Positions 22,159-63,234 of a DNA stretch of 64,000 nucleotides are shown here, in pieces; position 1 is the stretch's first letter, and every line of letters starts with the position of its first letter. Source of the DNA: Massalongia carnosa (taxonomy: Eukaryota); NCBI GenBank assembly GCA_965645245.1, contig OZ287086.1:806001-870000 (forward strand), given 5' to 3'. Position numbers and translations under genes: made by a program. Under the pieces are notes generated by a model that was given only the letters and a program-made list of their open reading frames with translations, had not been told where the DNA came from and made no database searches.

Positions 22159-23732
22159 TATAAGGCGGATAATTCGTCAGCCGATTTTCGTGGATTTAAT
22201 GCAGTAAACATTTCACAATGTTCATCATTTGATTGATGATTTTTATTGCAGTTTGCACATTTCACAACAACGTGTGCACACGCAGTTTTCGATTTGCATG
22301 TTATGCATTCATGATTACGTGTTTCATGATTTTGTGCACAAATATTGCATTTTGATTTGTTTCGACACTGATAATGCTTGTGTCCGAATTTTTGACAATT
22401 AATACATTGTGTATTCGGACGAACGTAAATAAATATTTCCGTGACACAGTGTTTTCCCGCGATATTTACGCCTTTTATCGCGTTTAAGGCCTGATTTCGA
22501 TCGTTAAAAGTCAAAACGACCGAAGAATTGACTTTATTTTCGCGATCTCGCGCTAGCCATCTGGGTAAATCGCACAATTCCATGTTAAGGTTGACTTTTT
22601 GAATTTCATTTTGCAAAAATTGCATATTTTGATCAAACGTTGCAATATTTACTCCATGTGCGATCACTTTAAACCAGGATTCGTCTTTTCGAATTCTTTG
22701 TGCATCGAACATATGTTCCAATATAGATTTGTTTTCCAACAATTCTGCAGCAGTGTTTTTCGAACTAGTAGTGAGAACGATATTCTGACCGGTTTTCGAT
22801 TTTTCGACCGTGTTGATTACGATATCTAACTTCGCGTTGCTGAATTGCGCGTTGATTTGATCTCGAAGTTTCAATGAGTCGATATCGCCGATTTGAATTT
22901 TTGGTGTAATTATCAGTCGTCTGAGTTTGATTGCATTTAATTCGTCGGTTTTGTCGAGTTTGTTCGAGGTTTGACTCGAATTTTTCGATCTGGAAACAGT
23001 GGTCCAATTTTAGGAATTCGCAGTTGCTTTTCCAAGCATTTGACTCTAGGATAGAGGCGTGTTATTGACCTTTGTACTCGTAACCCCGGCGGTTTCCTTT
23101 CGTGCGTTCGTGTTGACGACTTTATTTGGATTTTCAGTCATATTGACTTGTTGAACCCGAATCGATTTTCGCGTTGTTTCTTAGGTTCGATTACTAGTCT
23201 GATCAATTACCTTGTCCAATTTCCAATTCATCATGTCTAGTGTTGTTTTGATATTAATTGATTTTTTTGTCAATAAGGAATTGACATTATCAATGACTAT
23301 TGCTGTTTCTGGATTTTGATCTTAGACAAATGACTTCAATAACGCGGTTTTAGCCGTTTTGAGTAATCCAATCGATTGTGCTCGATTGATTGCTTCTTGG
23401 CTTTCCTCTACTCGTTCGTCGAATGTTTTTCGTTTGTTACGTTTGATGGGCGGGCTTAATTCTATATTAGAATTTAACGATGGCATGGGTAGATTGGTAG
23501 TAAATTGTCCAGATGGGAATTTGGTTGCTTTTGGGGTCGGCGTAGTCGGGGCGGACGAATATTCATGTGATTGATCCATAGGCTCGTCAAGTACAGGCGA
23601 ATTTTCTATAAGTCCTACTGACGAGAGCCCCGGAGATTCCATTTGGGGAGGGTTTTGAGGAGTGCTCAGGGGTGTTCCCGGGGAGGCTCTCGATATAATT
23701 CGTCGAGTCCTAGGGAGTACCGGATTGAACAT
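22158..23732 (-). pseudogene. LINE D ORF1 with stops
   Basis: Pieces 23322-23732 and 22158-22874; N-terminus diverged from C. Confidence 0.9.
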
Positions 23733-24638
23733 GATTTAATAAATAAATCGATATGCCTTTTCAATATCCCTTTTATCACCACCAAATAATTTTTTCTGAT
23801 GTTCCCCGGACGTACTAATCAGAATAGAAATTTACACCAATTTACAGGTCTAACGACTCTTGCTTTCCTATCCCTATTTATATGACAATAACTCGTCAAA
23901 TAAATCCTAATCGGGTTAAAATAGACCGTTCCTCGCTTAGGCAGTAAATCTTATTTAACCCTTTACCAGACACTACAATAGTTGAAAATAATGAAAGTTT
24001 TTTTTTTTGCTTTTTTGCGATAAAAATAGATCTAAGGCAAGGTAAGATAATAAGAGACTTCCTATTCTGATTAATCTGAAATAGGATCTTTGGTATAATC
24101 CTATTCCAGACGTTTTTCCCCTTCTTTTCAGTGATCTGTTGACCGGCCATTCAATGGAGATCGATAAAGCCTAAAATGGTTTATGCAGAAATTATACGTG
24201 AAATATACTGTGAATATTTGAGCTTGCGGAAGTTCCCGTAACCTTAAATGAGAAATGAACTTCAAAAAAGATGGTCGTCGCGACAGTTGTTGTACAGTAC
24301 CGCGACAGTAGATATTTTTTGTAGATAATTCTTGTAGTAATAATTGAGGGTAATGCGACAACAGAACAGAAGAAAGTGAGAAAAAAGAGCGATTTTTGGT
24401 GATATTTTTGGTATTTGTTGTTTTTTATAACTTCTAAAGCGCGCTTTATCACGTCTGTCGCGTGCGACCTGCAGAAAATCTCTGCTGGAGCTTTGCTAGA
24501 GCTCTCCTACACTCAATCTGAGTCCGTTTTTGCTCTGGAGGAGCTCAAATGACTGAGAAAGAGATGTTCAATTGACTGTGAAAGTTTTAGAGTATCAAAA
24601 GTTGCGGTACTTGTGTTTCGATAGGTGGTCTTTGGTGT

Positions 24639-24897
24639 GGTTGGGGAGAGATCCAACAGTAAAATCAGAAACGATTTAGGCTGAAACAGTCACGAACTTA
24701 CAAAGACAAATTTTAAAATAGATATTCTTCGATTACTATAGGTTGTTACTAACACGGAGTAAAAATGGGGAAAAATTGACAATACATAGATGGCTTATAA
24801 AGGGTTGATTTATTTGTAATATAGAAACATATCCAAAATAGTTTAGTGTCATAACCTTAGGTTGAATACACTTAATGAATAAAACAAAAAATAAAAA
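24639..24897 (+). mobile_element. Short 3'-terminal LINE fragment (GWGEIQQ-stop, 3'UTR, A-rich tail), C-type
   Basis: Reverse complement of C at about 10320-10574; diagnostic positions match C rather than D; ends aataaaacaaaaaataaaaa. Confidence 0.9.
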
Positions 24898-26774
24898 GTG
24901 CATTGAAATCTCAACAGATGACGAATTGATCAGTTGATTTAGGTTATAAATAGATTAAAAGTCGATCGATCGTGTATGTTTCTCGATCACTTTGACTTTT
25001 TTCGTTATAAATATTGAAAATCTGCAATTTTCGAAATTCATCAATTGTAATTTCAATAATTTGCATATCGGAATCGTCAATAAGATCCGTTCTAGGCGTG
25101 CATTGCAGTTTGGAATTGCCATTTGTGACAAATATAGCTACTCTCGAGCGATAAGTTGCTATTTTCGGCATAATACATGTAAATGACGGATGTGATATTA
25201 ATTTTTGATCTCGTGTCCATGGTTCCTGAAACAAAACAATATCAATTTGATTTGATAAAGCATATTCCAAACACGATATCATTGCATTCGTTGACTTTGC
25301 ATAATTATATTGAATAAATTTAACATTTTGTGTATTTTCGATGATTGTCAATAAATGCTGTCCTGCCATTACAAAGCGGCTAATTCGTCAGTCGCTTTTC
25401 GAACATTTAACGATATAATCATTTCACAATTTTCATCATTGGATTGATAATTCTTGTTGCAATTCGCGCATTTGACGACGAGGTTTGCACAAGCAATTTT
25501 TGACTTGCATGTTGTGCATTCTTGATTGCGTGTTTCATGGTTTTGCGCACATATGCTGCATTTCGCTTGACTTTTGCATTAATAATGCTTGTGTCTAAAT
25601 TTTTGACAATTAATGCATTGTGTGTTTGGACGAACGGAGGTAAATATTTCCGTGTCACAATGTCGGCCCGCGATATTGACTCCTTTTAACGCGTTCAAGG
25701 CCATATTTCTATCATTGAATGTCAAAAACAACGGATGATTTGATCTTGTTATGACGATCACGTGCTAGCCGTCTGGGAACATCGCATAATTACATGTTCG
25801 AATTGAACTTTTTAATTTCGTCTTGCAAATATTGCATGTTTTCATCAAATTTTGCAATATTTACACCGTGTGCGACGACTTTGAACCACGATTCGTCCTT
25901 TCGAACTGTTCGTGGGTCGAATAAATGCTCCCATATTGATTTATTGTTCAATAAATCTTCAGCAGTGTTATCAGGACTAGTAGTCATAACGATTCTTTGA
26001 CCCGTTTTGGACTTTTCGACCGTGTTAATAACGATAGTCAATTTCACGTCTTTAAAAATCGAGTTGATTTGGTTTCGAAGCAACAGTGAATCGATATCGC
26101 CGATTTGAGCTTTCGGTGCGATTATCAATCTTCGAGATTTGATCGACTTGAAATCGTCAGTATTATCGAATTTGTTCGCATTCGAATTATTGTTGTTGTT
26201 CTTGTTTGTTTTTTTGGATCGAGGAACGGTAGTCCAATTTTCGGAATTGACAGTCGCTTTTCCGAGCATTTGGCTCCATGTTCTAGCTGTATCGTTGACC
26301 TGCGGCCCTGGGACTCGGGCGGTCTCGCTCCGAATTTCTGGGTTGACGTTTTGAGTCAAATTCGAATTTCCATTTTAATTTCCCTTCGATTTTGTCTGTA
26401 CAGGATGCACCGATTGTCTCTTTGTTTCTGGAATTTGGATAGTTTGTTCTAGCACCCTATTCAATTTCCAATAAATCATTTCTAACGTTGCTTTTGGCTT
26501 GATCGATTTCTTTGCCAGTAGAGAATTGACGTGATCGATGACCATAGCCGTTTCGGGGTTTCGATCTATTACGAATGACTCTATTAGTGCATTTTTTGCC
26601 GTATTCAATAGTTGAATCGATTTTGATCGATTGATGACTTCTTGACTTTCAATCGAATGTTCGTCAAATTTTCGTATTTTGTTGCGTTTAATTGGTGGAC
26701 TCAGTCGAATATCAAAATTCAATGATGGCATGGGCAGAGTGGTACTGAATTCACCAGATGGCGCGACAAAAGGT
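24898..26774 (-). mobile_element. LINE fragment E (most of ORF1 and the first ~155 codons of ORF2)
   Basis: ORF pieces 24944-25369, 25790-26359 and 26375-26774 match C. Confidence 0.9.
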
Positions 26775-29700
26775 CGCGGTTTAGTGTATTTATACGCGGT
26801 AAATACATCTTTATTTGCAGCATTTTCTAGCAAAGTCAACCATGTTTGTTGTTTTGCTTTTCGAATTGCATGAAAATATTCGATTTAACTATGTTTCAAC
26901 GTCCGATGACTAAAATCGGACGGATAATTCTTCCATTCTCGACGATGTCTCAAGGTTTTTGGAAGTTCGGTTAAATCTTGCGACCAACAATTTTTCGATT
27001 TTGCACAAATTTTCGTTTTCGGTATAAACATTTAAGCCGCGTTTTTGATAATGTTTTGCAAATATATCGCTGATTCGTCGAATTGATGATTATTCAATAA
27101 ACATTGAACTTGTGATTTGTAGATGGTTGAATTTTCGTCTAGAAACTTCGCGAATGTATTCCAATCGGCTTTATTGCAATTGTATTTATTAAATAATGCG
27201 GTTGCATGTGAAGTTAAATTTTTGAAAGATGCGATTAGTTCAAATCGGATAACTTCATGATCAGAACCTGTGACGGTGTTTTCATCGATTGACCAATTTG
27301 TAATTGCATTTTCGATTTTAGAATTTGCAAATGTTAAATCAATAACAGATGAAGAACTTCCAGAATGGTTGTAGTATGTACATAAGTCAGGTGTGTTTAT
27401 CAAACTACACCTGTTTAATTTCAACCATTTAACTAGATTTTCTAATCGAATTGCTTGTTGAGTTTTCGAATTCCACCAGTTATGATGTGCATTGAAATCT
27501 CCACAGATGACAAATTGATCAGTTGATTTAGGTTGTAATTGGATTAAAAGTCGATCGATCGTGTATGTTTCTCGATCACTTTGGCTTTTTTCGTTATAAA
27601 TATTGAAAATCTGCACTTTTCGAACTTTATCAATTGTAATTTCAATAATTTTCATACCGGAATCGTCAATAAGATCCGTTCTAGGCGTGGATTGCAGTTT
27701 GGGATTGCCTTTCGTGAAAAATATAGCTTCTCTCGAGCGATAAGTCGCTATTTTTGGCATAATACATGTAAATTACGGATGTGATATTGTTTTTTGATCT
27801 CGTGTCCATGGTTCCTGAAACAAAACAATATCAATTTGATTTGATAAAGCATATTCCAAACACGATATCATTGCATTCGTTGATTTTGCACAATTATGTT
27901 GAATAAATTTAACATTTTGTATATATTCGATTTTTGTCAACGAATGCTTTCCTGCCATTACAAAGCGGCTAGTTCGTCAGTCGATTTTCGAACATTTAAC
28001 GATATAACCATTTCACAATTTTCATCATTGGATTGATTATTCTTGTTGCAATTCGCGCATTTGACGACTACGTGTGCACAAGCAATTTTCGATTTGCATG
28101 TTGTGCATTCATGATTGCGTGTTTCATGGATTTGCGCACAAATGCTGCATTTCGCTTGACTTTTGCATTGATAATGCTTGTGTCCAAATTTTTGAGAACT
28201 AATGCATTGTATGTTTGGACGAACGGAGGTAAATATTTCCGTGTCACAATGTCGGCCAGCGATATTGACTCCTTTTAATGCGCTCAAGGCCATATTTCGA
28301 TCATTGAATGTCAAAACAACGGATGATTTTATCTTGTTATGACGATCACGTGCTAGCCATCTGGGAACATCGCATAATTGCATGTTCGAATTGAACTTTT
28401 TAATTTCGGTTGACTTATGCATTGATAATGCTTGTTTCCAAATTTTTGACAATTAATGCATTGTGTGTTTGGACGAACGGGGGTAAATATTTCCGTGTCA
28501 CAATGTCGGCCAGCGAAATTCACTACTTTTAACGCGCTCAAGGCCATATTTCGATCATTGAATTTCAAAACAACGGATGATTTTATCTTGTTATGACGAT
28601 CACGTCCTAGTCATCTGGGAACATCGCATAAATGCATGTTCAAATTGAATTTTTGAATTTCGTCTTGCAAATATTTCATTTTTTCATCAAATGTTGCAAT
28701 ATTTACACCGTGTGCGACGACTTTAAACCACGATGCGTCCTTTCGAATTGGTCGTGGGTCGAATAAATGCTACTATATAGATTTATTGTCCAATAAATCT
28801 TCAGCAGTGTTATCAGGACTAGTAGTCAGAACGATGTTTTGACCCGTTTTGGACTTTTCGACCGTGTTAACAACGATAGTCAATTTCTCGTATTTAAAAA
28901 GCGAATTGATTTGGTTTCGAAGCAACAGTGAATCGATATCGCCGATTTGAGCTTTCGGTGTGATTATCAACCGTCGATATTTGATTGCCTTGAAATAGTC
29001 AGTAGTATCGAATTTGTCCGCATTCGAATTGTTGTTTTTGTTGTTATTATTTGTTTTTTTGGATCGAGGAACGGTAGTCCAATTTTCGGAATTGACAGTC
29101 GCTTTTCCGATCATTCGGCTCCATGTTCTAGCTGTATCGTTGACCTGCGGCCCTGAGACTCCGGTGGTTTCGCTCCGAATTTCTGGGTTGACGTTTTTAG
29201 TCCAATTCGAATTTCCATTTGATTTTCCCTTCGATTTTATCTGTACAGATCGCACCGATTGTCTCTTTGTTTCTGGAATTTGGATAGTTTGTTCTAGCAC
29301 CCTATTCAATTTCTAATCAATCATTTCTAACGTTGGTTTTGGCTTGATCTATTTCTTTGCCAGTAGAGAATTGACGTAATCGATGACCATAGCCGTTTCG
29401 GGGTTTTGATCTATTACGAATGACTCCAATAATGCATTTTTTGCCGTATTCAATAGTTGAATCGATTTTGATCGATTGATGACTTCTTGACTTTCAATCG
29501 AATGTTCGTCAAATGTTCGTCTTTTGTTGCGTTTAATTGGTGGACTCAATCGAATATCAGAATTCAATGATGGTATGGGCAGATTAGTACTGAATTCACC
29601 AGATGGCGCGACAAAAGATTTCGCTTTTGGGGTGGGTGTGGACGGTGCGGACGAAAATTCTCGCGTTTGGTGCATGGCCTCCGTGGATTTTACGGTTAGT

Positions 29701-30762
29701 GGGGTGCTCCCAATTATCACTACCGAAGATTGCGTGGGTGAGTCGGTTCGGGGGGTGCCCGGGGGTGTACTCGGGGGGACCCATAGATGTTGTGGAGGGG
29801 GGCCTCGGGGAGGAGTTGTTGATATCAATCGATTTGGTCTATGACCTATCGGGTTAAACCTTCAATTGAGCATAGTGTTTTTGACTTTGCAATATCCCTT
29901 TTATCGCCACCAAATAATTTATTCTGACTTTCCCCGGACGTACTAGTCAGAATAGAATTTACACCTGTTTACTGGTCAAATGACTCTTTCTTTCCTATCC
30001 CTATTTATTTGACTATAACGCGACAAATAAATCCTAATCGGGTTAAAATAGACCGTTCCTCGCTAAGGCAGTAAGTCTGATTTAACCCTTTACCAGACAC
30101 TAAAATAGGTGAAAATAATGAAAGTTTTTTTTGCTTTTTACAATAAAGATAAATTTTAATGCAATGTAAGACAATACGAGACTTCCTATTCTCATTAATC
30201 TGAAACATTACGTTTGGTATAATCCTATTCCAGACGTTTTTCCACTTCTTTTCAGTGATCTGTTGACCGGCCGTTCAACGAAGATCGATAAAGCCGAAAA
30301 TAGACTGTGCAAAAATTATACGTGAAATATGCATTGAAAATTTGTGCTGGCGGAAGTTCCCATAACCTTAAATGAGGAATGAACTTTTGAAGACTTTGAC
30401 TTCGCGACAGTTGTTGTACAGTCCCGCAAGAGTAGATATTTTTTGTAGATAATTTTTATAGTAATAATTGAAGGTCATGCTACAACAGAACAGAAGAAAT
30501 CAAGAAAAAAGAGCGATTTTTGGTGATGTTGTTGGTGTTTGTTCTTTTTTGCAACTTCTAGAGCGCGCTTTATCACGTCGGTCGCGTACGACCAGCAGAA
30601 AAACTCTGCTGAAGCTTTGCTAGAGCTCTCCTACACTCAATCTGAGAGCGTTGTGGCTATGGAGGAGCTCAAATAACTGAGAAATAGCTGCTTAATTGAC
30701 TGTTAAAGTTATAGTGTATCAAAGGTTGCGGTACTTGTGTTTCTTGTTGTTGTTGTTTGTTT
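26775..30762 (-). mobile_element. LINE copy F (5'UTR, ORF1 with internal duplication, APE part of ORF2), 3'-truncated
   Basis: Matches C from about ORF2 codon 395 to the 5' terminus gcggtacttgtgtttcttgttgttgttg. Confidence 0.92.
28149..28662. repeat. 254-bp tandem duplication in LINE F ORF1
   Basis: atttcg at 28149, 28403 and 28657 bounds two diverged copies. Confidence 0.85.
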
Positions 30763-30880
30763 CAAGAAACCGTAAGAGTGATCTTTAATGAAATCACTTC
30801 GCGTTATTCATAAAGGTCTCCCGTTTATGAACCGACCATGTCTCGCAGGGATTTTTACTACTATGTTCCTGACCAGGCAG

Positions 30881-33051
30881 TATCCCTCTCGCTGTCATTC
30901 TAGCACCCCCCCCCCAAGCTAATCTATATTGGACTAGCTTCCGCACCGATGAGTCATCAGAACATTAGTTTTCTCTAGAGTGTTTGCGCGTTTGTTTACT
31001 TTTCAAAGAATACTATTCGGTCATTCAATCAAAATAAATCACATAAATTACTATTCTTCAAGCTTCGGAATTGATATTATAAGTATGACGCTCAATGAAG
31101 AAGAAATCCCGAGTGTATCAGACAAATCTCCCATTTAAGCGAAGCAACATAAAATAAATCGCAAAAGAAGTGTTCGGGATATTTTAATCGACCTTCCCCC
31201 TATTTCCTCAAAATATACCCCCATTCGGGTTGAAAACAGGCCTTTTGTTCCGCTCGTTGAAAACGATTCTCGAAATCCTTTGGGATTATTTCGGTTTTTT
31301 ATAACAAGGCAGCATTGTCGTATTATCGCAAATCATACCAATATCAAGGCAAATAACTACATGGAAAAGGAGAAGGAGAACAATCATCGGGTTTGGACTG
31401 ACACTACTGACTCGGAAATTGAGGTTTTTTTGGGCATATTAATTCTTATGGGACTCGATCATCTACCTGCTACAGAGGATTATTGGAATCAACGTCCTGA
31501 CAAACCAGTTATCATGCCTATTCTGTCCGCGATGTCGCTTGGTCGATTTCAACAAATCAAACGATTTTTGAAAATCAATAATGGACAGACTGAGCCTATC
31601 GGACTTGGTCAAGGACCTGATTGGTGGAAGAAACTGGAACCGTTGGCTACTGATTTCCGAAAGACTTCATTGAAACATTGCAGACCAGGAAGTATGATAT
31701 CTATAGATGAACAGCTGGTGTTATTCAAGGGCCGTTCTCGACATACCTTGCAGATTACTACAAAAAGTGCCCATAAAGGATTTAAAATCTACAGTCTCTG
31801 TCAGGATAATTATCTGTTGTCATTTATGTTTGCCTCGAAGAGTAGCAGAATAAGTGAATTGAAAACAGTCAGACAATTGGGATTTTTGCCAAAAGATAAA
31901 CTAACTCCTAGTGCTTTGCTAGTGATTCAGTTATGTAAAGAACTTCCGTCCTCACTGAATTATCATCTTTTCTGTGATAATTTCTTTACTAGTACGAAAT
32001 TATTCAAGGCACTTCGATCAATCGGAATAGCTGCCAGTGGAACTGCTAAAAAGGGCTCGGGCTTTCCAGAAGAATTGTTGGCCATACGGGACGTCACTTC
32101 AAAAGGAAAAGACTGGGGTCTTCAGGCCTATATGGTGGTCGACGATAAGGTGCTTTGTATGGGCTGGGTGGATAATAATGGTGTGCAGTATATGACCACC
32201 GGTCATTCTCCTCAGGACTTGTACGAAATGCACTATATAAATCCGCACAAGAGATATGGAATTCCCGAGACCTCTCTTCAACCTATTGTATCGTATTTCC
32301 CATCAACTCTGGCTCACTCCATTCCCTTGCTCAATCAAGAGGTTCAACGGCCCTTAGGATTACCGATACCAGCCCCAATCAAAGAATATAATCTTCATAT
32401 GGGGGGATCGGATGGAAACGCTCAGCAACGAGCGATTTACTCATACAATCGTCGAACGGATCGTTACTGGTGGCCTTTATTCATTTTTATTTTAGATGCA
32501 GCCGGATTGAATGCCTATAAACTTTACTCGCTGAACTCTTTCGATTCCGAGGAGATAAAATTTACTCGTTCTGAATTTCTTCGTCGGATTGCTCTTGAAC
32601 TGATATCAAATCAAGCGGGCATCAGGCCCGGCTCATCAAAGATAAGCATCAATACCACGATTGATGCTTTAGTACCATCTCCCATTCATCATTACGTTCG
32701 TCTTGAAGGCAGAAAAAGATATGTGTAATGTAACGCCGAGAAAAAACGACCTTCAAAGCGGAAGGGAGAGCCACTGGCTGAAATAAGTGTCGATGGGCGT
32801 AAAAGAAGGCGAAGGGGTGCTAAGACTATATGGGCTTGTGGAGGATGTAATCCAATCAGGCCCTGCTGTAAGAAAGCCAGCTGTTGGGAAGCTATTCATA
32901 TGATAGGGGACGAGTAAATAGGTATCTGATACTCCGTACAACTTCTTGTGAATAGGAATAACATTGATTGGTCAAAAGATTAAGGTTTAGCGCTTTCTAA
33001 CCAACAATGGTTTAGCTTGGGGGGGGTGCTAGAATGACAGCGAGAGGGATA
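30881..33051 (+). mobile_element. piggyBac-like DNA transposon with ~40-bp TIRs
   Basis: TIR tatccctctcgctgtcattctagcaccc...aagctaa at 30881-30922, inverted at 33012-33051; the exact termini are ambiguous by 3 bp. Confidence 0.92.
31085..32917 (+). pseudogene. piggyBac-family transposase with two in-frame stops
   Basis: SIDEQL, CDNFFTS and YNLHMGGSD motifs; ATG 31085 in frame with TAA at 31136; TAA at 32726 cuts off an in-frame Cys-rich tail (C...ACGGC...CC...CWEAIH, stop 32917). Confidence 0.9.
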
Positions 33052-33335
33052 GTATCGATTTTACGTCCCTACTAACCAAAACGAGTCGAGGACAACTCGG
33101 GCGGGTGCTCGTTTAAAATTCTTCTATTAGCTCACGGCCTAGACTGTTATCAATTACCGGGTTCCTCGTATATTGCCCTCTTCTGGTCCCAAGGGTGTCT
33201 TATTTGATGACTATGTTGCCTCCACTATCCCCGGTACGACTCCGGTTCGGGCCGTGTTGCTGACTCTAGCCATCAATCGGATGATTTTCATAACTCAAAT
33301 ACCTTGTATCGTGTAGGCTGTGAAGCTACACTATG

Positions 33336-33634
33336 TGTGAGGCGAAGTACGAACAGTGTCACTAAATGCCTCTACAGTAGTGGTCGGACAATAGAATAGA
33401 AGTCGCTATGGAACAGCAGTAGGTGGAGTGTAATTAATAGATTGATCAGTGGCCCTCCGAAAGAGGTGGGCGAAGGGCTCTTTATCCTATAGCCCCACCA
33501 CGATCAGGCCACGTTCGTCAAACGAATTGCAATTACATGATTAGACCGGTTGAGACTATCGCATGGGTGTCATCCCGCGCACCTCCTGCAGAAGTGTACG
33601 ACCGCTTCCTGTCTTATAGAAAGTTGTCCTGATA
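33336..33634 (-). repeat. G1 3' LTR
   Basis: tgtgagg...cctgata; about 24 differences from the partner LTR, counted by eye. Confidence 0.95.
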
Positions 33635-34689
33635 GTACCCTCCTCCTAGGGCTCATGTCCTCATGTGCTTGCTGTCGCGTTTTCTATAGTCTCAATTCAT
33701 CCTCAGCCTAACCCCCGTCGAGTCCCCTGTTATGAATCCTCTGACATTCCGAACATGATTCATGCTTTTGCCTTCAAAGTCTCGCACCTGGGACTCAAGC
33801 GCTGCATCCAGAATCTCCTTTCATGTCGTTTAAGCCATATCTCCAATAAAACTGGTGAGTTATCGGCCAGTGTAGTGAATTCCAATGAGGTTTCGTGAAG
33901 AATGTGTGAATAATCCCCCACTTCTCATAAAACTCCCCATCTTTCTCTTTCCTTTCTCCCTTATACAAGCATAATACCAATGCCTAAAACTCCAGAATAC
34001 CGTGTTATTTCTGCCCCTTCCTTGTCCCCTGATGAGCTCGGGGATTACCCACTACCTCGCGGTAGTGGAAGACGTCTTCCGCCTTCTAGTCTGAGGAAAG
34101 TACGTGTTCCTGGCGATTCCCCTTCTGTTGCTCGGTCTTCAGCTCGTTCTCTTGCGTTTGGTGAGGCAATATCAATTTCTTCTCTGCGCCGTCCTCTGTC
34201 TCTCCGTCCTCGGCTCCTCTACCCCTGCGGTCGCTTCCTTCCCGTTCCGGTCGGCCTTCTGTCTTTTGTAACCCAATGGGCGTTCGTCGGGTGGTGAGAG
34301 CTCGTCCGGATTTTATATAGAGGGACGGTCAACTTCGGCTTCGCGCTCTGCTTCGGGCTCGCCGGCCTATCGCGGGCCTTCAGGAGATGGTGTGCGTGCG
34401 CCTCCTTCCCGTGTGGCTCCTCCCCCCACCAGGCATTCTCCGGCCTCTCGCGGGTCGCGCGGTGTTGCCTTCCCTCCTCACGAGGATACGTGTGAAGAAT
34501 GAGAGGGTATTGACCTTGAGGGCTACAAGGTCAAGGGAGGAGTGATTTGGTTTTTTCAGAGCGTTAGCAAGGGATACGACGGCCGTTAGATAGAATGAAA
34601 TTTTAGATTTTCAATCTTTATCCGCTCTCATTTCTTGTTCCTCTTCCGTCTTTTCTTGACGTGAGAATCATCATGATTTGCTGGATATT

Positions 34690-37600
34690 GCTGATGATAT
34701 ATTCTAATCAGGTACTGAGATCCTTTCATATCTTCGACTGGTAACCATTGATTATCTGTATCTGAGTAGCCTGACCATTTCACTAAGTATTAGAGTTTAC
34801 CATAATGAATCCCACTGTCTAGGATTTTCTCTACTTCCCACTGCTCTTCCCCCGCGACCTCTATTGCGGGAGGCTCTTCTGATCCTCTTTTTGGATCTAT
34901 ATTGTGGGGTTCTAACAAGGAGACATGAAATACATTATATACTCCCTTCAGTAAGCTGGGTAGTCGCACGCGGTAAGCATTCTTCCCCACGAGAACTAAT
35001 ATCTCATATGGTCCATAATATTTATAATCAAATTTCTTGGATGGCCTAGTAGACTTGAAATTTTTAGCGCTCAGTAGATCTTTCTCACCTACTTTATATA
35101 TCTTAGGAATATGGTTTTCATTATAGAACTTAGCTTGAGAGTTTACATCCTCATTGAGAAGTTTCCGCAACTTTTCTCTTTGTTTCAGCATGTTCACCGC
35201 CCGAAGGCGAGATGCTGGGGTCTCGCTCTCCCTTGCTCGAGAATACTATCTTCCCACTTTGGGGCTTCCCCGAACATTGCTTCGAACGGTGTCATATTGA
35301 TGACGCTGTGCAAGCTATTGTTGTAAGCAAACTCAGCCATTGGTAACAAATATAACCAGTCATTTTGCTGATAGTTCACATAACACCTCAGGTACTGTTC
35401 TAAAATTTGGTTTTGTCTCTCCGTCTGCACATCGGTTTGAGGATGGAATGCTGTGCTATAATAGAGCCGTACTCGGAGGTAATAACAGAAGTACGACCAA
35501 AATTTGGAGCTGAAAAGACTTCCCCGATCTGTTACAATCGACACTGGCATACCGAATTTGGTAAATATTTTTCGACAAAGACATCGCTCATGTTCTCAGC
35601 TTCCCAGTCCTTTCGTGCGGGTATGTAGCGAGAGAATTTCGTATACCTGTCTATCGTTACCAGGATAGAGTCATAAACTTGCCCCCGCCGAATACTTGGC
35701 GGAAGGTCGGTTATAAAGTCCATTGTCCAATTATGTCTAGGTCCTTGGGGGATTGGCAACGACACCAATTCTCCGTAAGGGTTATGTCTTGGAGCCTTGA
35801 CCTGATGACAACGAGTACAGGTTTTGACATAACTTTTGATGTCTTTTCGCATTTTAGGCCAGTAGTATTTTATTTGAATTAATTCCACTATCCGCCTAAC
35901 TCTAAAGTGGCCCGCATTGGGGTCGTCATGATTCTGTCGCAGTAGCGCTTCTCTCAATATGCCTGAAGGTACGTACCATTTATTATCTCTGCATAAAAGG
36001 CCGTCTTCTATATGCCAAAGGTTTTCTTTGTCTTTATTATTCCCCGCGGTTTCCCTTCCAATGCCAGGTAATCTACCTGCGAGTGACTTTGGACACCTTT
36101 GTTGACTTCTAGCGTTCCATACAAACTCTCCCTCTTGTGTTGCTCCCACTGTGCCGACGAGGCGGCAAGGGGCCTTCTCTGCTGCGCGAGTTGATCAGAC
36201 TCTTGCAGTGCCAGAAGGACGGTGCGTAACTCGAGCGGTAGAGCAGTAAAGGCTGAGTCCTTCTCTGAAACTTCCTTTGATTGTTCTAGAGAAATTCGAG
36301 ACTCCTTCTCGGATGTCTCCAAGAGTTGGAACTCTGTAGGCTTCGTTTCTCTTCTCCTTAACTCTACTTACTGCTCCAAGAACCTCGAGAGTTTCATTCT
36401 CAGTCCCTTCAGTAGCCAGTAAGGAACGCGCGCTTGGACCATTTTCGGTCTCATCAACGGAGAGTCCCCTGATTCATAATCAGTTCCGTTAACAGATTCA
36501 GGTTCTATAAATCCATGCACAATTGTGCTATCAACAGTGGGCTCCCATTCCATAACATTTCACCTAGGAGCAGTTACAGGGATGCCGGTTATCGACGCAA
36601 CCACCCACTTCTTCGTCTCGAACTTTTCTTCGAGTTTCTCTGTCCCCTGTCGAATACTCAGAGGCTCCCCTGCTTCACTGGAAACTACTGCACCGACTTG
36701 ATGAGACAAGTTGGGTTCATTTCCAGCATAGTCTGGACGCCTTGAAGGCCCGTCCGGAGGATTATAGCGCCCTGGTCGGTATTCAAATACCAAGTCGAGA
36801 CTAAAGAGTCTTTCCCACCATCGCGCTTCTCTTCGGGATAAATTCTTGGTGGTGAGAAACGTACGAAGGTTGTAGTGATCGGTGATCACACGAATGGGAT
36901 GCATTGCCCCTTCAAGATAGTGTCGCCATTGCTTGCATGCTTCGACAATCGCTAACATCTCAGTTTCGCCCACTCCATAATTGAGTTCAGCTGGGGCCAT
37001 TTTCCTTGTCCAAAAGTCGATAGGATGCCAGCGTCCGGATTCGTCGACTAACTGTGATATAATTGCAAAAATCGCGACTCCTGAGGCGTCCGGTTCTAAT
37101 TGGATTTTCCTCTTCGGGTCGAAGTGCAATAGCATGGGAGCAGTCGTGAAAACAAGTTTTAATTTTTCGAAGGATTCCTTGGCTTCCTTTGCGAACGTAA
37201 ACTGGCCGTCGAATTTACGCCTTTTTCCTCATTTGAGAAGAGTAGTAAGGGCAGTTACTATCCGCGAAAACCCGTCTATAAATCATCTATAGAAGTTCGC
37301 AAAACTTAAGAAGACTTGTACGTCTCTATGATTTTTGGGTTCTGGCCAATTTTTTATCGTCGTTATGCGAGAGGGGTCCATTCTTATGCCCGTTGGAGTC
37401 AAAATAAATCCTAATTATTCAATCTCGTACTTATTGAAAAGGCATTTGGAGAGTTTCGCATGCAGATTATATTTCCGAAGCTTCTCGAGTATTATTTGAA
37501 CGTGATTTGCATGCTCTTCGATTTTTTTTAGAAAATACCAAAATATCGTCCAGATACACTACTACGAATATGTCCAGGTATTCACTTAGAGCTTCGTGAA

Positions 37601-39906
37601 TATACGCCTGAAACGTGGCAGGTGCATTCGCTAACCCAAAAGGCATTACTAGATATTCGTAGTGACCGTACCTGCATCTGAACGCGGTCTTACATTCGTC
37701 GCTGGCTCTAATGCATATAGAGTTGAAGGCGTCCCGAATGTCGAATTTGGTAAAGATGAGCGCACCTATCAACACTTCAACTAATACTTGAATTAATGGG
37801 AGTGGATAACGGTTTTCGATCGTTACTGCATTAAGACCTCGATAATCGACGCATAGTCGCAGGCCACCATCTTTTTTCTTCGCGAATAATATTGGTGCTC
37901 CAGCCGAGGACTTGTTTGGAACTATGTAACCTTTAGCTAATTCCTCGTCTAAATACTCACGGAATGCATTTAATTCTGTCCGTAATAAATTATAAATAGG
38001 CCCGAAAGGAATGTTTCCTTCGGTCTCAATCTCATGATCATGAGGTCCATGTTCCGGTAGTTTATATGCTTTCTATTTTGAGAATACATCACTATAGTCG
38101 GCATATTTGGAAGGGATTTCAGTTGGTACTTCAGTCACAGAACGAATTACTGTTCCCGTTTGGTCGAGATCTTGAATATTTAGAAGAAATGCTTGTATTC
38201 CCACTTCTACGCATAGCCTTCGTATCCCCTGGGAGTCCCCTACCGCTATATCTGGATGACTATTGGAAGTATTACTTCGAGGGACTTGTGTCCGCTCGAC
38301 TACAGGCTCACCAGTCTCAAGGTCATAGACCTCATGCAGACACGCCTAACCGTCCTTGTTTTCTGATGGACGAATATGGAACAATTTGCGCTCATGCCAG
38401 TGGATAACCGGGTCAACCTGATCTGGCTAGGGTATTCCCAGTATCATATCAAGGCCAAACATTTCAGCACCCACGAACGTTTTATCCGCTCGTACCTCTA
38501 TACCCTTATCATCAACCACTCCAACTTGAAGAGTGTGATTATGATAAGTTTATAGAGGCGTTCCATATAGTGTCTTCAATTCCGACGGCGGTGGGGACTC
38601 GACAGGGATTCGTAAGGCAGCCTCCTTCACCTTTATTTGGGAAAGGAAATTCCAAGTAGAACCGCAGTCGATCATAGCGCATATTTGCAGAAGTACCTTT
38701 TCAATGTATAATGTCACTACAGTGAATAGATGTTGTACCGTTTCACCTCTTTGTCTGCGAGCCAAAAAGATCGAGGCAACATCGATTGGCTCTAGGCTTT
38801 TCCCGACCTTCGAGATGGGCTCTACACTCGGAGCGTTTGTTACCTTTCTTGTTACAATTCTAGCATGTAATTCCAAAGTTATCGTAATTTTCTTCACGAG
38901 GCCTCTTGGAATTAGGCTGAGTAACAACAGCCTGTTTAGTGTTAGCGTTCTTGGGCTCATCGGGTTTAGAAGAGGTGGTTCTCATATAGGTAGAGGATCG
39001 CCGGGCGTACGACGGCCATGAGGATCTCTCTCCATTTACAGAACGAGATTGTGTTCTAGTAGAGGTGGTGCGAAGAAAGTCGGGTTTCGGCTCCACCCGC
39101 TCGGCCTCTCGTGCGGCTTCGATCAACTCTACACGGTTCTTGCCTTGTGAGTTGGCGCGAATAATAGCTCGTTGCAAGTAGTCATGTAGGGAATGTAAGA
39201 GGTTACTATGCTTTTGTGACTCCGAAGCCCTTTCCGGTAGTTGATCTTCGAGAGTCTCCAAGTAAGAAACCAATTCCGAGACGGATTGACCCGGACGTTG
39301 TTTAAGATTCTTTAATTGACCGCCGATGTCTAATAGTCAGAGGTGTTTGGGTTTGAGTTTCTCCTGTAAAAGGTGAGTCATATGTTCCCACGTATAGGTG
39401 GGTTGGTCTGGGGTTGGTCTTTCGCGATGCCCGTTATTCGCCGGGGTTCCGTTAATGAAGTTCTCAGCATAGAGAATCTTTGCCCTGTCAGTCGCATAAG
39501 TGATGGGTTTAGTCTCGAACGTCCGTTGACATTCTCTAATGAAGGTCTCATAGTCCTTCTGAATAGTACCCGTGTAAAGCTTATGGTCAGCAACTTTAAA
39601 GGACTTTTCGAGACGAAGAGGGTCCACTTCCTTTGCTCTGATAGGTATTGTCATAGTAGGAGGTTCTGTTGGGAAACCAGCGTCTCGTTCGGCCCTGGCC
39701 TTTTCGAGGTTAGTTGCCAATTGGGCTCGGGCGCGCTGGTCGTTGATATCATACAACTCCTGTTGCATCTCTTCCATATTTAGTAGTCGCTGGTCATTAC
39801 CAGGCCCCTCGCCAGAGGTACGCGTTATAGAAGAATCGTTAGTTCCTTCAAGTTGGGTAATGGGGTTACCTCTAGCAGATGCAGCAGGACGACCTCGTGG
39901 TGCCAT
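34690..39906 (-). pseudogene. G1 gag-pol, fragmented
   Basis: gag MAPRGRP...; [20 protein letters not shown] and YLDD; RH PDASG/EMLAIV; IN HD..GH, C..C, MDFI, TDRG, TER; chromodomain WEVEKILD. Confidence 0.93.
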
Positions 39907-39946
39907 ATCGTAGTCGGACCGTTCTTCGTTTTAAGACTGATCAATA

Positions 39947-40245
39947 TGTGAGGCGAAGTACGAACAGTATGACTATATGGCTCTACAGTAGTGGTAGGAC
40001 AATAGAATAGGAGTCGCTATAGAACAGCAGTAGGTGGAGTGTAATCAATAGATTGATCAGTGGTCCTCCGAAAGAGGTAGGCGAAGGGCTGTTTATCCTA
40101 TAGCCCCACCTTGATCAGGCCACGTTCGTTAAACTAATTGCTATTACATGATTGGACCGGTTGAGACTATCGCATGGGTGTCTTCCCGCGTACCTCCTGC
40201 AGAAGTATGCGACCGCTTCCTTTCTTATAGAAAGCTGTCCTGACA
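39947..40245 (-). repeat. G1 5' LTR
   Basis: tgtgagg...cctgaca. Confidence 0.95.
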
Positions 40246-40348
40246 CTATGTGTCTATATATTTTATTTCTTTCAGCCGGAAGGCTCCGTGTTGTAGACGA
40301 AGGAGACCCGTGTGACAGACATAGCTGACCCGTGTCGTACGTCTTTAG

Positions 40349-41086
40349 CTCTCAGCCGATGACTGCATGAAAGGACTTGAACCTTTAAGAGTATGACCGA
40401 ACGTTGTTAACGAGGTCTATGAAAATCTTATTAACGAGGTCTTCGAGAACAATATTAACGAAGTTCGGCTGAACTCTTTTCATTCGTTTTGGGATCCATC
40501 GAGGTCTACCCGTGTCAAATCAACACCATGCCCGTGTCAAAATACATTATTTTCAGCTAATGACTGCTAGAAAAGGACTTGAACCTCTAAAAATATGTAC
40601 CCCGATATAAACAGGGTGCAGATCTGTCTTAACGAGCCCCCGCAGAACCCCCTTCACAGGGACGTGTTATTGATTTGTGACTGTGTTTTTTGTGAATGTG
40701 TGTTTTGTGACTGTATATTTGTGACTGTATGTTTGTGACTGTGTGCTTTGTAACTGTGTACTTTGTGACTGTATGCTTTGTACAACGTGTAATTGATGAC
40801 TATGTGTTTTGTGACTCTCTGTTTTCCTCGATTTTATTTAACAGGCCGGGCCTATTAAATGGGATATTGTTATTATGCTCCGAGATAGAGTTTTCTTGAG
40901 GTGACAGCATTCGCCCCGGTGCCTTTACGCGTTCTGTTGATCCCAGCTGATGACTGCATAGGGAGACTTGAACTCTCAGGAGCTAGAACGCGTGTCGACT
41001 ATGCCCGGGTGGGGGATGATGCTGCTCCTTTGGTCCACATCTTCTTCCAGCTGATGACTGCATGAAGGAATTTGAACCCTTAGAAG
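40349..41086 (-). ncRNA. Four copies of a ~43-nt putative structured RNA motif (closing stem, T-loop hairpin, GCAGUCAUYRGCU)
   Basis: Copies at 40349-40391, 40549-40594, 40941-40981 and 41044-41086; compensatory changes in both stems; expression not shown. Confidence 0.5.
40676..40816. repeat. ~14-bp degenerate minisatellite (tttgtgactgtRtg)n
   Basis: About 8-9 units visible. Confidence 0.85.
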
Positions 41087-41277
41087 CATAGTACAGGGAC
41101 GCGCGCATTCTACCCCCCGGCGGTTGGCCTTCGTATCCTCTTCCGTACGTACGTCTGCGACGCGTGTGAACCGTTAAATTAGCATTGTTTTGATGCGAAG
41201 AGATAGAAGCAAATCTATATGTTTGACGGTCACCCCACGGTAAGGCCTTTGGCGTCTCCGTGGTGAGGACCGATGGT

Positions 41278-41354
41278 CCGACGGTGTAGAAGGAGGAGGA
41301 CCGATGGTGTAGAAGGAGAAGGACCGATGGTGTAGAAGGAGGAGGACCGATGGT
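41278..41354. repeat. 23-bp tandem repeat ggaccgatggtgtagaaggagga, about 3.3 copies
   Basis: Unit starts at 41298, 41321 and 41344. Confidence 0.9.
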
Positions 41355-41355
41355 T

Positions 41356-41533
41356 GGTCGCGTGCGACCAGCAGAAAAACTCTGCTAGAGCTTTGCTAGA
41401 GCTCTCCTATACTCAATCTGAGAGCGTTTTTGCACTGGAGGAGCTCAAATGACTGAGAAATAGAGACTCAATTGACTGTTAAAGTTATAGTGTATCAAAA
41501 GTTGCGGTACTTGTGTTTCTTGTTGATGTTGTT
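41356..41533 (-). mobile_element. Isolated LINE 5'-terminal ~178 bp
   Basis: Matches C 16936-17107 (ggtcgcgtgcgacc...gcggtacttgtgtttcttgttg). Confidence 0.92.
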
Positions 41534-42672
41534 CTCATCGAAACAGTTAATGCAATTCAATAACATGTTTTCTGGTGTTTGTCGTTGATTGCATCGATTA
41601 GTGCATTTTGACGAATTATAATCTTTCAATCGCTGTAAATATATTCGAAAATAGCCGTGTCCGAATTTTAATTGCATATTAGTAGCAAATATCAATTTGG
41701 AATAGTTGTTTGATAAATAATAAAAACTCGATATGCAAGGTTTCAAATCGAATTTCTCATAGTATTTGCCTTTTGATTTGCATTGTTGCCATTGATTCCT
41801 CCATGTGGTTAGCATATTTTGATTTATTTAATTTTTTACAAAATCAAATATTATCGCCGAGGACTCGACTAGGATTCGATTTTGGCCTGTCTTTGCTGTT
41901 TTGTCTGCAATTTCGTTTTCGGTAATTTTGAATGACTTGGAACCTATTGCAAAATCACCTGATAATTGCTTTCAAATAAGTGTTTTGCGAGCTTTGGAAT
42001 TTGTCTTGCGAAAATATGATTTGTTAAGTTCTGAATTTCGTTTATCGCGTTTATACTTTCAGAAAAAAACCAAATCGTTTCTTCTAAGTTCGATAAAATA
42101 TTAGTATTCGACAAGTAATAGACCCATTTCATTGCTTGTAATATCGCATTGAGTTCAGCATTTTTAATGCTTGACTGTTTGCTTAAATTCCAGCTTTTCG
42201 AAATCGTATGATACTTGATCAGACAATATTTTTCGATAAATCGATCATAATTATTGATAAAAATACTCCAATTCCGCATAATTAGCGCAAATGTGACCGC
42301 AAACGTTGCATCGATTTTTGATCCATCCGAATAAAGTAAAAATCGGGATTTACCGGAGTTCATTGATTAAATTTTGGATAAGGTCGAACGAATAATAACT
42401 TGATTTTGCAGATTCTTTTGTATTTTCGGTTTGAAATTCGATTTTGCAAGACGATTTCCAAAGTTTAATGAAATGATTTGATTGTTCAAATTTATCGGTT
42501 TTTTGAACTATGTCGGAAACGGAATGAAGAACGCGAATAAGCTGACTAGGATATCGTTTATTTGTTTGTATTTCGTATTCGTTCTATTAGGCATATTTGT
42601 TGTTCTATAAACTAGTGTCAAAACCGATGTTTTCAAATTTTATCGAATATATGTTTTGAATTCTTTGACAAA

Positions 42673-44574
42673 TGTTATGATCTACCTAGAGACAAGTCAT
42701 AGGGACACTAGAAATGAATAAAATAAAGATGAAGAAGGAAAAAGACAATCGACAACAAGAACCTGCCCCTATATATCCTCTACTGCGCTAGTACCCATAT
42801 GGTATAGTCGTCATGGAACCTTCTAGCAGCTGCGGGAACGAAATCGAAAGCGCCTGCGTGTTCCATCTACGATTGCCCTAGGCGGTGCCGAGTGCCGAGG
42901 TCGTGCCGTGTAGAATCGTGACACTACCCTTCGCTTTAAATCGCGATCACCTGAGCGCGAACTAGGCGGTGCAAGCGGTGAAGGCAGTCAGTAGTCAGCG
43001 GTGAAACTGGTTCATTAGCTGAAGTGCTTCAGATTCTTTGCCAAGGTTTCCCGTGTCTTTCCAAGCTCTTTCGTCGATTTTCCGGTAATTTCGGTGCAGT
43101 CAGTGCTGTGGTGTCTGGGGTCTGGTGTCTGGTGTCTGGTGCCTGCTCTCTGGTTTCTGGTGTCTGGTGTCTGGTAGTTCTGGTTCTGGTTCTGGGTCTG
43201 GTTGGTACGACTGGTCAAACTAGTGCAAGGGTCGCTCGTTGTCGTTCCGATTTGGGGTTCTTTTACATCCGCCACCGATGATGGTTCTTCTTGGTCTGGG
43301 TAGTTCTGAAGGTTCTGGTGGTTCTGGATCGTACGACTGGCCTAGTGCAAGGGTCGGTCGTTATCGTTCCGATGTGGGTTTCTTTTACATCCGCCACCGA
43401 GGATGGTTCTTCTGGGTTCGAGTTCTGGGTCTGGGTGACTGGCCTAGTGAAAGGGTCGCTCGTTGTCGTTCCGATGTGGGTTTCTTTTACATCCGCTACC
43501 GAGGATGGTTCTTCTAGGTTCTGGTTCTGGGTCTGGGTGACTGGCCAAGTGCAAGGGTCGCTCGTTGTCGTTCCGATGTGGGTTTCTTTTACATCCGCCA
43601 CCGAGGATGGTTCTTCTGGGTTCGGGTTCTGGGTCTGGATGCCACACTGTAGGGGTGGCGGCCTTCTGGTTCTGGTTCTGGGTCTGGGTGCCACGCTGTA
43701 GGGGTGGCGGCCTTCTGGTTCTGGTTCTGGGTGACTGGCCTAGTGCAAGGGTCGCTCGTTGTCGTTCCGATGTGGGTTTCTTTTATATCCGCTACCGAGG
43801 ATGGTTCTTTTAGGTTCTGGTTCTGGGTCTGGGTGACTGGCCAAGTGCAAGGGTCGCTCGTTGTCGTTCCGATGTGGGTTTCTTTTACATCCGCCACCGA
43901 GGATGGTTCTTCTGGGTTCGGGTTCTGGGTCTGGATGCCACACTGTAGGGGTGGTGGCCTTCTGCTTCTGGTTCTGGGTGACTGGCCTAGTGCAAGGGTC
44001 GCTCGTTGTCGTTCCGATGTGGGTTTCTTTTACATCCGCCAGCGAGGATGGTTCTTCTGGGTTCGGATTCTGGGTCTGGCTGCCACGCTGTAGGGGTGGC
44101 GGCATTCTGGTTCGGGTTCTGGGTCTGGGTTCCACGCTATAGGGGTGGCGGCCTTCTGGTTCTGGTTCTGGGCGCCACGCTGTAGGGGTGGCGGCCTTCT
44201 GGTTCTGGTTCTGTTTCGTACGACTTGCCTAATGAAAGGGTCGTTCTTTCTTCAGTCCTCGATTCGGTGAGTTCTTTTACATCCCTCACGTAGGATAATA
44301 GATAAAGACGATCTTTATTGTAATGTTATGATCTACATAGAGACAAGTTATAGGGACACTAGAAACGAATACAATAAAGATGAAGAAGGAAAAAGACTAT
44401 CGACAACCAAAACCTGCTCCTATATATGCTCTACTGCGCTAGTACCCATATGGTATAGTCGTCATGGAATCTTCTAGTAGCTGCGGGAACGAAATCGAAA
44501 GTGTCTGCATGTTCCATCTAATATTACCCTAGGCGGTGCCGAGTGCCGAGGTCGTGCCGTGTAGAATCGTGACA
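42673..44574 (-). mobile_element. Non-autonomous LTR retroelement (TRIM/LARD-like) with a tandem-repeat interior
   Basis: 251-bp LTRs at 42673-42923 and 44324-44574 (TG...CA); TSD acaaa at 42668-42672 and 44575-44579; PPT-like aagcgaagggtag; no gag or pol motifs. Confidence 0.93.
43180..44290. repeat. Composite tandem array: ~100-bp unit (7 copies + 1 degenerate) mixed with ~40-bp ccacgctgtaggggtggcggcc units and (ggttct)n
   Basis: Recurrent gactggcctagtgcaagggtcgctcgttgtcgttccgatgtgggtttcttttacatccgccaccgaggatgg. Confidence 0.9.
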
Positions 44575-59900: not shown

Positions 59901-60274
59901 CTCGGTACATGCCCTATGACTTCTGCAGTGGATCCCATGAACAGTCTCCAGTTTGAATTGTCATAGAAGATATCGTGTTGATTCAGCATTCCCAAACTCA
60001 CAAGGTTCACCGGACATTGAGGAATGTAGAGAACATTGTTAAGAATCAGTATCGACGAGGGTAAGCCGTCCTCCATGAACAATGTCTTATGAATGGTTCC
60101 TCTTCCTGGCGACGTTCCTGTGGACGTTGACCCTGCTAGATCAGTGGAGTAGCTCGTATAGTCAGTGAACGAGTATCTGTGGTTGCATACGTGCATATCT
60201 GCAGCGCTGTCCAATAACCACGAGTTCTTGTTCAGATTCGTCATGGTCATGACTTTTTGCAGTCTTGTGGCCAT
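56951..60274 (-). pseudogene. Copia pol (PR, GAG-pre/IN, RT, RNase H) with one in-frame stop at 57248
   Basis: WLLDSAA, WHARLGH, SDLVGP, RTDFGTE, NGVAER, KARWV, LYGLKQ, FVDDL, YSDSDWAG, EAEY, KHID, ADGLTK. Confidence 0.95.
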
Positions 60275-62990: not shown

Positions 62991-63234
62991 TTCGGTGTAG
63001 TACGATCATTGTGTTCATGCTCTTTCTAAAACGCAATTTTTGTACTTTTGACAAGAAATCGCTGTGTACAGAAGAGAGAACTGATTAATGTGATTTGAGG
63101 GATCGTTTCTAAAGACACAGAAAGATTTTAGTCATGTGTCTACGATTCATTGAATAGGAATGATGCTTAGCTGATTGCACTGCGATGCTGCGGATTAAAA
63201 GCTTCGATTCGTTTTAAATCGATAGCACCCTTCC

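Follow-up and report, generated by a model that had tools for sequence, protein, structure and literature searches.

What are four copies of a tRNA-like hairpin doing in a row, all on one strand, amid the transposons of a eukaryotic genome? In the 64,000 nucleotides of Massalongia carnosa DNA analysed here (assembly GCA_965645245.1, contig OZ287086.1, positions 806,001 to 870,000, hereafter the window), such copies lie between positions 40354 and 41076 on the minus strand. A previous reading of the letters alone (the sequence-only reading) had taken them for a structured single-strand motif of no described family. I report that these copies belong, in decayed form, to an undescribed structured-RNA family located in a module, hereafter X, that is linked to long interspersed nuclear elements (LINEs). 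Members of the family keep a conserved fold on the sense strand, X is a multi-copy, non-coding module in which they are placed, and X has repeatedly been fused to LINE sequence.

Four copies in the window and the family to which they belong

The 64-kb window was searched with the pattern TTCAART-N(8-11)-GCAGTCATYRGCT. The pattern matches four times, always with the shorter spacer, TTCAART-N(8-9)-GCAGTCATYRGCT, and always on the minus strand (40354-40381, 40555-40583, 40945-40972 and 41049-41076); 100 dinucleotide shuffles of the window gave no match. A covariance model built from 40 family members, R1, finds these four places only, with scores of 56-61 bits. Every stem that the sequence-only reading had listed is present, the outer stems included. 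Copy 1 (40332..40403, minus strand, 61 bits) has the closing stem CUCUU/GAGAG, a T-arm-like hairpin (T-hairpin) AAAGG-UUCAAGU-CCUUU and the 13-mer GCAGUCAUCGGCU. Copy 2 (40536..40604, minus strand, 56.1 bits) has the closing stem UUUUU/GAAAA prolonged by an outer stem uacau/augua, the hairpin stem AGAGG/CCUUU and one additional base in the linker (40571), which is absent from part of the related contigs. In copy 3 (40923..40994, minus strand, 58.1 bits) the closing stem UCCU/GGGA stands with a 9-bp outer stem acgcguucu/agaacgcgu, and the hairpin stem is GAGAG/CUCCC, with one A-C mismatch. Copy 4 (41027..41098, minus strand, 57 bits), with the closing stem CUUCU/GGAAG and the hairpin stem AAGGG/UCCUU, is mutated with respect to the family consensus, having a UUCAAAU loop and a G-U closing pair. 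At 41069 and 41071, however, every covering contig in four related runs (18, 6, 1 and 1 contigs) has G instead of A and C instead of T, respectively, which gives copy 4 a UUCAAGU loop and a G-C closing pair.

Taken alone, the four copies are no proof of structure. Their folding-energy z-scores are 0.11, -1.76, -2.47 and -0.58 for copies 1 to 4, and the T-hairpin is missing from the minimum-energy folds of copies 3 and 4. Moreover, both stems oppose a pyrimidine run to a purine run, and about 70% pairing is expected from composition. It is the family that provides the proof. The spacers between the copies had been described as largely unrelated. This is too simple a view, since the sub-motifs CGTTAA.. 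(upstream) and GACACGGG (downstream) recur in them and a 15-nt tandem repeat is found.

An exact-pattern scan of public metagenome contigs yielded 96 loci with 123 matches, or 127 matches with the four of the window. Spacer length separates these matches into two classes: at least four of the five T-stem pairs can form in 88 of the 95 with an 8-nt spacer (the window's four included), as against 2 of the 32 with a longer spacer, a class that amounts to chance background. Control scans returned 37 single matches, spread across all spacer lengths, from 596 Gb of prokaryote genomes, for a chance expectation that I estimate at about 35, and 3 matches from viral contigs. R1 scores these 40 control matches at 25 bits or less and family members at 31-82 bits, a range that contains the window copies. 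The model also recovered about 27 further copies missed by the exact pattern, which left the picture of paired stems unchanged. Many family loci contain 2-4 copies spaced by 51-600 nt, and one group consists of 183-nt tandem units. Open reading frames (ORFs) close to family loci encode Fungal_trans_2, Glyco_hydro_20 and fructosamine-kinase domains, and one run holding part of the stretch is labelled 'lichen metagenome'; both observations point to fungal hosts. The motif defines a widespread family, present in dozens of fungal-type contigs and apparently undescribed; a literature search with the 13-mer as a word returned no paper.

The fold of the unit and the strand that carries it

Pairing was assessed on an alignment, A1, of 40 representatives less than 93% identical to each other. 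The T-stem is paired in about 95% of the cells, and all five of its pairs show double changes. Each of the five inner pairs of the closing stem, P1, is unpaired in 0-7 of the 40 sequences (about 90% paired overall), with CG and UA swaps about equally frequent. The 40 representatives display 35 distinct stem haplotypes, including transversions such as GUGCU/GGCGC and UAUCU/GGAUA. None of 500 shuffles matched the observed pairing or covariation, and sliding the partner by 1-3 columns lowered pairing from 77% to 40-65%. An alternative fold, in which the 3' strand of the T-stem and the linker pair with the 3' strand of P1, proved to be background (70.5% versus 71.5%, with 416 of 500 shuffles as high). 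Because this rival pairing uses the same purine run and stays at background, composition alone does not account for the pairing observed. Thus the compensatory changes that the sequence-only reading had seen in four copies are borne out by the 40 aligned representatives of the family.

These data bear on the possibility that the units are functionless, being either the remains of the head of a tRNA-derived short interspersed nuclear element (SINE) or simple duplications, whose likeness would reflect recent common descent. The window copy is indeed decayed, carrying C>T and G>A changes, and many family copies stem from a few closely related assemblies. Yet pairing and 20 core bases persist while spacers and stems have diverged past alignment, covariation is absent from the rival pairing that draws on the same purine-run columns, and neither a tRNA (ARAGORN) nor an A box was found. 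I regard a mere relic as very improbable.

The strand that folds can be told from the wobble pairs. The inner ten pairs form in 375 of 400 cells on the motif strand, 69 of them as G-U, versus 317 of 400 on the complement, which identifies the minus strand of the window as the folded strand, in agreement with the sequence-only reading. On this strand, a variable P1, which ends in a nearly fixed U-G/U-A pair, leads into a 5-bp hairpin with the loop UUCAAGU, followed by a 3-nt linker and then by the near-invariant strand RCAGUCAUYNGCU. P1 is joined to the T-stem through its 5' strand, and 16 nt separate the 3' strand of the T-stem from P1. In 71 aligned copies, each loop position shows the consensus base in 68-70 cases, and RCAGUCAUYNGCU is the consensus of the 13-mer; the closing pair of the T-hairpin is G-C in 61 of 68 distinct copies. 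A 3-bp mini-hairpin, P3, may form within the 13-mer: it is paired in 99.5% of cells and 6 of 7 variant cells keep the pair, but this variation is one-sided, with no double change, and hence compatible with pairing rather than a demonstration of it. Whole-unit RNAalifold supports an outer UGG/CCA helix and, by eye, a CUCGU/ACGGG helix joins the recurring flanks CGTTAATAC and ACACGGGCA. With these outer helices, the unit is a rod of about 110 nt tipped by the T-loop junction.

In tRNA, the T-arm consists of a 5-bp stem and a 7-nt loop, UUCRANY, closed by the G53-C61 pair. The hairpin resembles it in all three respects, as had been proposed: its stem has 5 bp, its 7-nt loop UUCAAGU fits UUCRANY, and its closing pair is G-C. 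The unit differs from a tRNA in that it has no D or anticodon arms, a continuous 5' strand, a conserved 16-nt insert and no A box. ARAGORN detects no tRNA gene in the window; Rfam gives no match at gathering score in the window, and nothing tRNA-like at E values up to 10 in 40200-41400. The claim that the motif belongs to no described family thus stands, no SINE, tRNA or Rfam relative having emerged. The weak Rfam matches obtained (CRISPR-DR25, sR38 and Fluoride, E 1.4-6.6) are off the motif or due to chance. Other identities were considered and rejected. An acceptor/T minihelix of tRNA has the reverse topology, since in the unit the closing stem and the T-stem share an unbroken 5' strand, not an unbroken 3' strand. 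The boxes of a C/D-box small nucleolar RNA (UGAUGA/CUGA) are, by eye, not conserved among the copies. The segment UGCAGUCAUCAGCUG, which resembles a stretch of 7SL RNA, suggested the Alu domain of the signal recognition particle (SRP); the pairing registers differ, however, and Rfam gives no SRP match. A telomerase RNA is not indicated either: 8-mers of the telomere-template type occur singly, and different families do not have them in common.

The same letters can also be read as DNA. The motif fits the B box of RNA polymerase III (Pol III) promoters, GGTTCRANTCC, two window copies having no mismatch, one having one and one having two. One may therefore ask whether the units are DNA-level promoter or insulator monomers, GGTTCAAGTCC being a Pol III B box for TFIIIC and CAGCTG an E box, in an array that would act like the monomers of mouse L1 or like extra-TFIIIC sites, the RNA fold being secondary. 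The monomers of the mouse L1 5' untranslated region (UTR) are tandem units of about 100-200 bp, variable in number, which serve as DNA promoters. The X units are likewise tandem, variable in number (from 1 to 4; in one family they are tandem repeats of 183 nt) and located in a LINE leader, that is, in the leader of a retroelement needing an internal promoter. However, a DNA site needs neither covariation of stems nor a tolerance of G-U pairs on one strand, and mouse L1 monomers are not known to have covarying RNA stems. Furthermore, an A-box-like word is not enriched upstream of the units (11 of 78, against 8 in the downstream control), the B-box pattern is at chance level in the whole window (9 found, 7.9 expected), and window X has on its sense strand a T5 run that fits badly with Pol III read-through. 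Of the overlap with the B box put forward by the sequence-only reading, the fit of the loop to the consensus remains, and an accompanying A box is lacking. Altogether, I consider a promoter or insulator array unlikely.

Module X and its fusions to LINE sequence

The four copies are embedded in a larger unit. The first part of X (40245..41352, minus strand) contains the four hairpin units and is unique within the window. Its 5' end is near 41351, a breakpoint that recurs in related contigs, and consists of 23-nt tandem repeats (41272..41354, minus strand, repeat family D3). Between copies 3 and 2 lies the 15-nt tandem repeat, of the ACAGTCACAAA type (40674..40835, minus strand, repeat family D1), present in differing numbers of copies from one related contig to another (joints 40735>40801 and 40770>40805); this repeat has CAGTCA in common with the conserved 13-mer.

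On its 3' side, this part is interrupted by a Gypsy-type retrotransposon (33335..40244, minus strand) with long terminal repeats at about 33335-33632 and 39944-40244, a 5-bp target duplication, CTATG, and an RT_RNaseH domain. X resumes beyond it with a second structured domain, M1 (33188..33323, minus strand), which shares 70-80% identity with the sequence that follows the array in nine loci. RNAalifold applied to 20 copies of M1 (e.g. L058:503-651) predicts 29 pairs, 19 of them with compensatory changes, alongside conserved unpaired stretches such as GGCCCGAA; Rfam gave no match on whole loci containing M1. Close to the 3' end of X comes a block, M2 (30796..30883, minus strand), which is 72-78% identical to 22 loci downstream of their arrays and is conserved across families that cannot otherwise be aligned. 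Between M1 and M2 lies a piggyBac-like DNA transposon (30881..33051, plus strand) with 42-nt inverted ends and a transposase ORF (31361-32728, DDE_Tnp_1_7, E 2e-49). In contigs of three runs from three studies, 33327 is joined directly to 40243, without the Gypsy element, and contigs that break off from the window at 33049 continue into sequence resembling M2 (a match made by eye), which indicates that related genomes harbour uninterrupted copies of X. The X of the window is therefore a decayed copy split by the Gypsy and piggyBac-like insertions. Once reassembled, it measures about 1.5 kb, and the longest sense open frame in its 1508 nt has 122 codons. X is thus a non-coding module of about 1.5-2 kb with 1-4 hairpin units and the blocks M1 and M2. 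The sequence-only reading missed this LINE-tied context as well as the two transposon interruptions.

Decay is also apparent at the level of single bases. Compared with DNA-type contigs of the related runs X1, X2, X4 and X6, the segment 40245-41352 differs mostly by A>G and T>C in the relatives, which means that window X accumulated C>T and G>A changes, those at 41069 and 41071 in copy 4 among them. This excess has a pattern like that of repeat-induced point mutation.

What follows X on the same strand is a full-length LINE. The 3' end of X stands about 10-40 nt before a LINE copy, called 'D', that begins at the usual first base of its family and whose 5' UTR and ORF1 occupy 28401..30757 (minus strand); ORF2 of this family encodes endonuclease, RVT_1 and RNase H domains. 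At the other end, X abuts a 180-nt piece from the very start of a LINE (41353..41533, minus strand), a piece that is not part of X in another genome, since a contig of run X6 diverges at 41351. This 180-nt piece is itself preceded by a LINE ORF2 fragment (amino acids 1146-1276), and the whole arrangement (41353-41926, minus strand) may have arisen as a chimera of several parts or through nested insertion.

The association with LINE sequence is not peculiar to the window. Family loci were examined with 1.5 kb of flank, and 15 of 57 loci, which by eye represent about 10 distinct places, have pieces of LINE ORF2 downstream of the units in the orientation of the motif; none has such pieces upstream or antisense. 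The ORF2 pieces begin at residues ranging from 320 to 1192. Pfam recognizes RVT_1 downstream of the array in two loci (L023 and L079); in a third, L014, an endonuclease domain 1.1 kb past the last unit suggests a near-full-length LINE. Most X copies, on the other hand, are fused to truncated LINE pieces without ORF1. The LINE proteins of the other families are only about 25-35% identical to that of the window.

The best-sampled family (L007) shows how these junctions are built. Its X is about 1.95 kb long; most copies share one 5' start, about 840 nt before the first unit, and the few that are 5'-truncated start at scattered points. Twenty loci of this family contain the motif of the X 3' end and at least 150 nt beyond it, and in several of them the flank lines up with other flanks from its first base onward, at offsets of 26, 52, 144 and 456 nt. 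One and the same X end has therefore become attached, time and again, to different positions in a single downstream element. Both in the window and in this family, the 3' end of X is devoid of an A-rich tail, whereas the LINE ends in an A-rich tract.

Judged by its architecture, the closest known system is MINE of Magnaporthe grisea, in which a 1.1-kb non-coding RNA, WEIRD, is fused to a 5'-truncated MGL LINE, chimeras that Gogvadze et al. (2007, PMC2104539) ascribe to template switching by the LINE reverse transcriptase. In MINE as described there and in the X-LINE fusions alike, a non-coding module of about 1-2 kb always precedes LINE sequence of the same orientation; the module is full-length at its 3' end, for X wherever this could be checked, and the LINE start is variable. 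According to the sections of that paper drawn on here, neither solo copies of WEIRD nor relatives of it in other genomes were found, and no RNA structure is described; X differs from WEIRD as described in being found in many diverged fungal-type contigs and in having covarying RNA domains. The two are likened here by architecture. The titles and abstracts of later work on fungal chimeric retroelements held nothing relevant. The same paper names Mg-SINE as a tRNA-derived SINE. X resembles such SINEs in being non-autonomous and LINE-dependent and in containing a tRNA-like piece, and differs from them in that it has no A box, does not end in an A-rich or LINE-like tail, greatly exceeds them in length and precedes the LINE sequence. 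By analogy with the proposal made for WEIRD-MGL, the junction pattern suggests that X RNA may be copied by the LINE reverse transcriptase after a jump from the LINE RNA onto the X RNA.

The remainder of the window is rich in transposons, with several LINE copies (endonuclease, RVT_1, RNase H), Gypsy and other elements. Rearranged, nested LINE copies occupy 18150-29873, with duplicated ORF1 and ORF2 segments out of order. Tandem repeats with units of 102 nt and 49 nt (families D1, D4 and D5 of the whole-window repeat listing) fill about 1 kb at 43222-44215, and a 50-nt unit is present in seven tandem copies at 62595-63044 (family D2 of the same listing). At 57248-60274 (minus strand), a 1008-amino-acid open frame looks by eye like a Ty1/copia-type Gag-Pol.

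A possible role for the junction

Why would such an RNA keep this fold? About 20 near-invariant bases conserved across families call either for a conserved partner, be it a reader of T-arms or an ORF1 protein, or for catalysis. I tentatively favour, at rather less than an even chance, the idea that the retroelement RNA carries, in the T-loop junction, a recognition fold acting in cis. The junction would dock a conserved partner, either a Gag-like zinc-knuckle ORF1 protein or a host reader of T-arms, and by docking X RNA would enter the LINE particle, or be stabilized inside it, and so become available for copying.

Catalysis, or more generally RNA processing, would be the alternative suggested by the same bases. 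The unit could be a self-cleaving ribozyme of a new kind, or else imitate a T-arm and be cleaved by RNase P or RNase Z, and be an element that trims read-through transcripts or sets the ends of the retroelement RNA, as do the HDV-like ribozymes (related to that of hepatitis delta virus) of R2 and L1Tc. Some 20 near-invariant unpaired bases beside freely covarying stems are what one expects of a catalytic core or of a site that a universal enzyme recognizes, the hairpin fits the T-loop consensus, and the sharp, constant 3' end of X must be generated somehow. That LINEs can have ribozymes at their 5' ends is established, HDV-like ones being described at the 5' ends of R2 and L1Tc in the portions of PMC3185411 used here, and the X units have in common with them that they are conserved structured RNAs in a LINE-type 5' leader. 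They differ from them in that they have no nested double pseudoknot and no Rfam match, occur in arrays, and are found hundreds of bases into the RNA rather than at its first base. Indeed, no Rfam ribozyme family (hammerhead, HDV-like, twister, pistol, hatchet and hairpin included) matches at E values up to 10 in 40200-41400 or up to 1 in eight loci. A hammerhead was rejected by eye: its core is absent from the sense strand and degenerate on the antisense strand, where CUGAUGA is not conserved (copies 1 and 2 have CCGAUGA and CUAAUGA), and there is neither a stem II nor GAAA. Nor do X copies of the best-sampled family start at a unit, and the strand topology is opposite to that of the acceptor/T minihelix. 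A processing element thus seems to me rather unlikely, slightly more so than promoter monomers.

The position of the units in a long leader raises a further possibility, that they block 5'-3' decay or recruit ribosomes by mimicking the tRNA elbow. Flaviviruses carry exoribonuclease-resistant RNAs in tandem, and here too compact folds occur in tandem, in a leader that is long and structured, upstream of ORF1 in the near-full-length copies (L014 and the window). Neither by sequence nor by fold, however, does Rfam match them to resistant RNAs or internal ribosome entry site families, in the window region or in eight loci. Moreover, since most X copies are fused to LINE pieces that have no ORF1, a role in translation does not explain their spread. 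I hold a stability or translation element to be improbable, marginally more so than a processing element.

Several points nevertheless weigh against docking as the role of the junction, or soften the evidence on which it is built. The docking step itself is purely inferred. Sense transcription of X is presumed, all the contigs compared being DNA-type, and the junctions that suggest template switching come from one contig family. For two of the four window copies, the folding energy is no better than that of shuffles. The conservation of the loop and of the 13-mer is partly built in, as the collecting pattern fixes them and the model rewards them, and the shuffle control overstates significance because related copies share descent. 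Finally, the persistence of about 20 near-invariant unpaired bases in spite of diverged LINE proteins argues for a host factor or for catalysis over a binder encoded by the element. There is also a bolder proposal: the T-loop junction, perhaps with M1, would be the core of a new class of LINE-parasitic non-coding RNAs spread across ascomycetes, of which WEIRD is possibly a member, and this core would be a ribozyme or a tRNA-elbow mimic that captures a universal host factor and so gains access to the LINE reverse transcriptase. I put this forward as a long shot, on a par with promoter monomers.

In kind, X is a known thing, a structured element in a retroelement leader, within a module like WEIRD. 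What appears to be undescribed is the motif, together with its wide occurrence in fungal contigs and the domain M1. Structured RNAs of fungal transposons seem to have been largely left out of surveys, to judge from the portions of two of them considered here: one fungal structured-RNA screen avoids transposable elements (PMC8216456) and the main text of a second does not mention transposons (PMC5640933). The covariance model R1 provides a marker with which such modules can be annotated in fungal and lichen genomes. The motif also offers a handle on why one non-coding RNA, WEIRD or X, is repeatedly copied by a LINE reverse transcriptase and fused before truncated LINEs. If the unit cleaves, it would represent a new ribozyme class; if the fold recruits the RNA, it would be the 5'-side counterpart of the 3' tails by which SINEs hijack LINEs.

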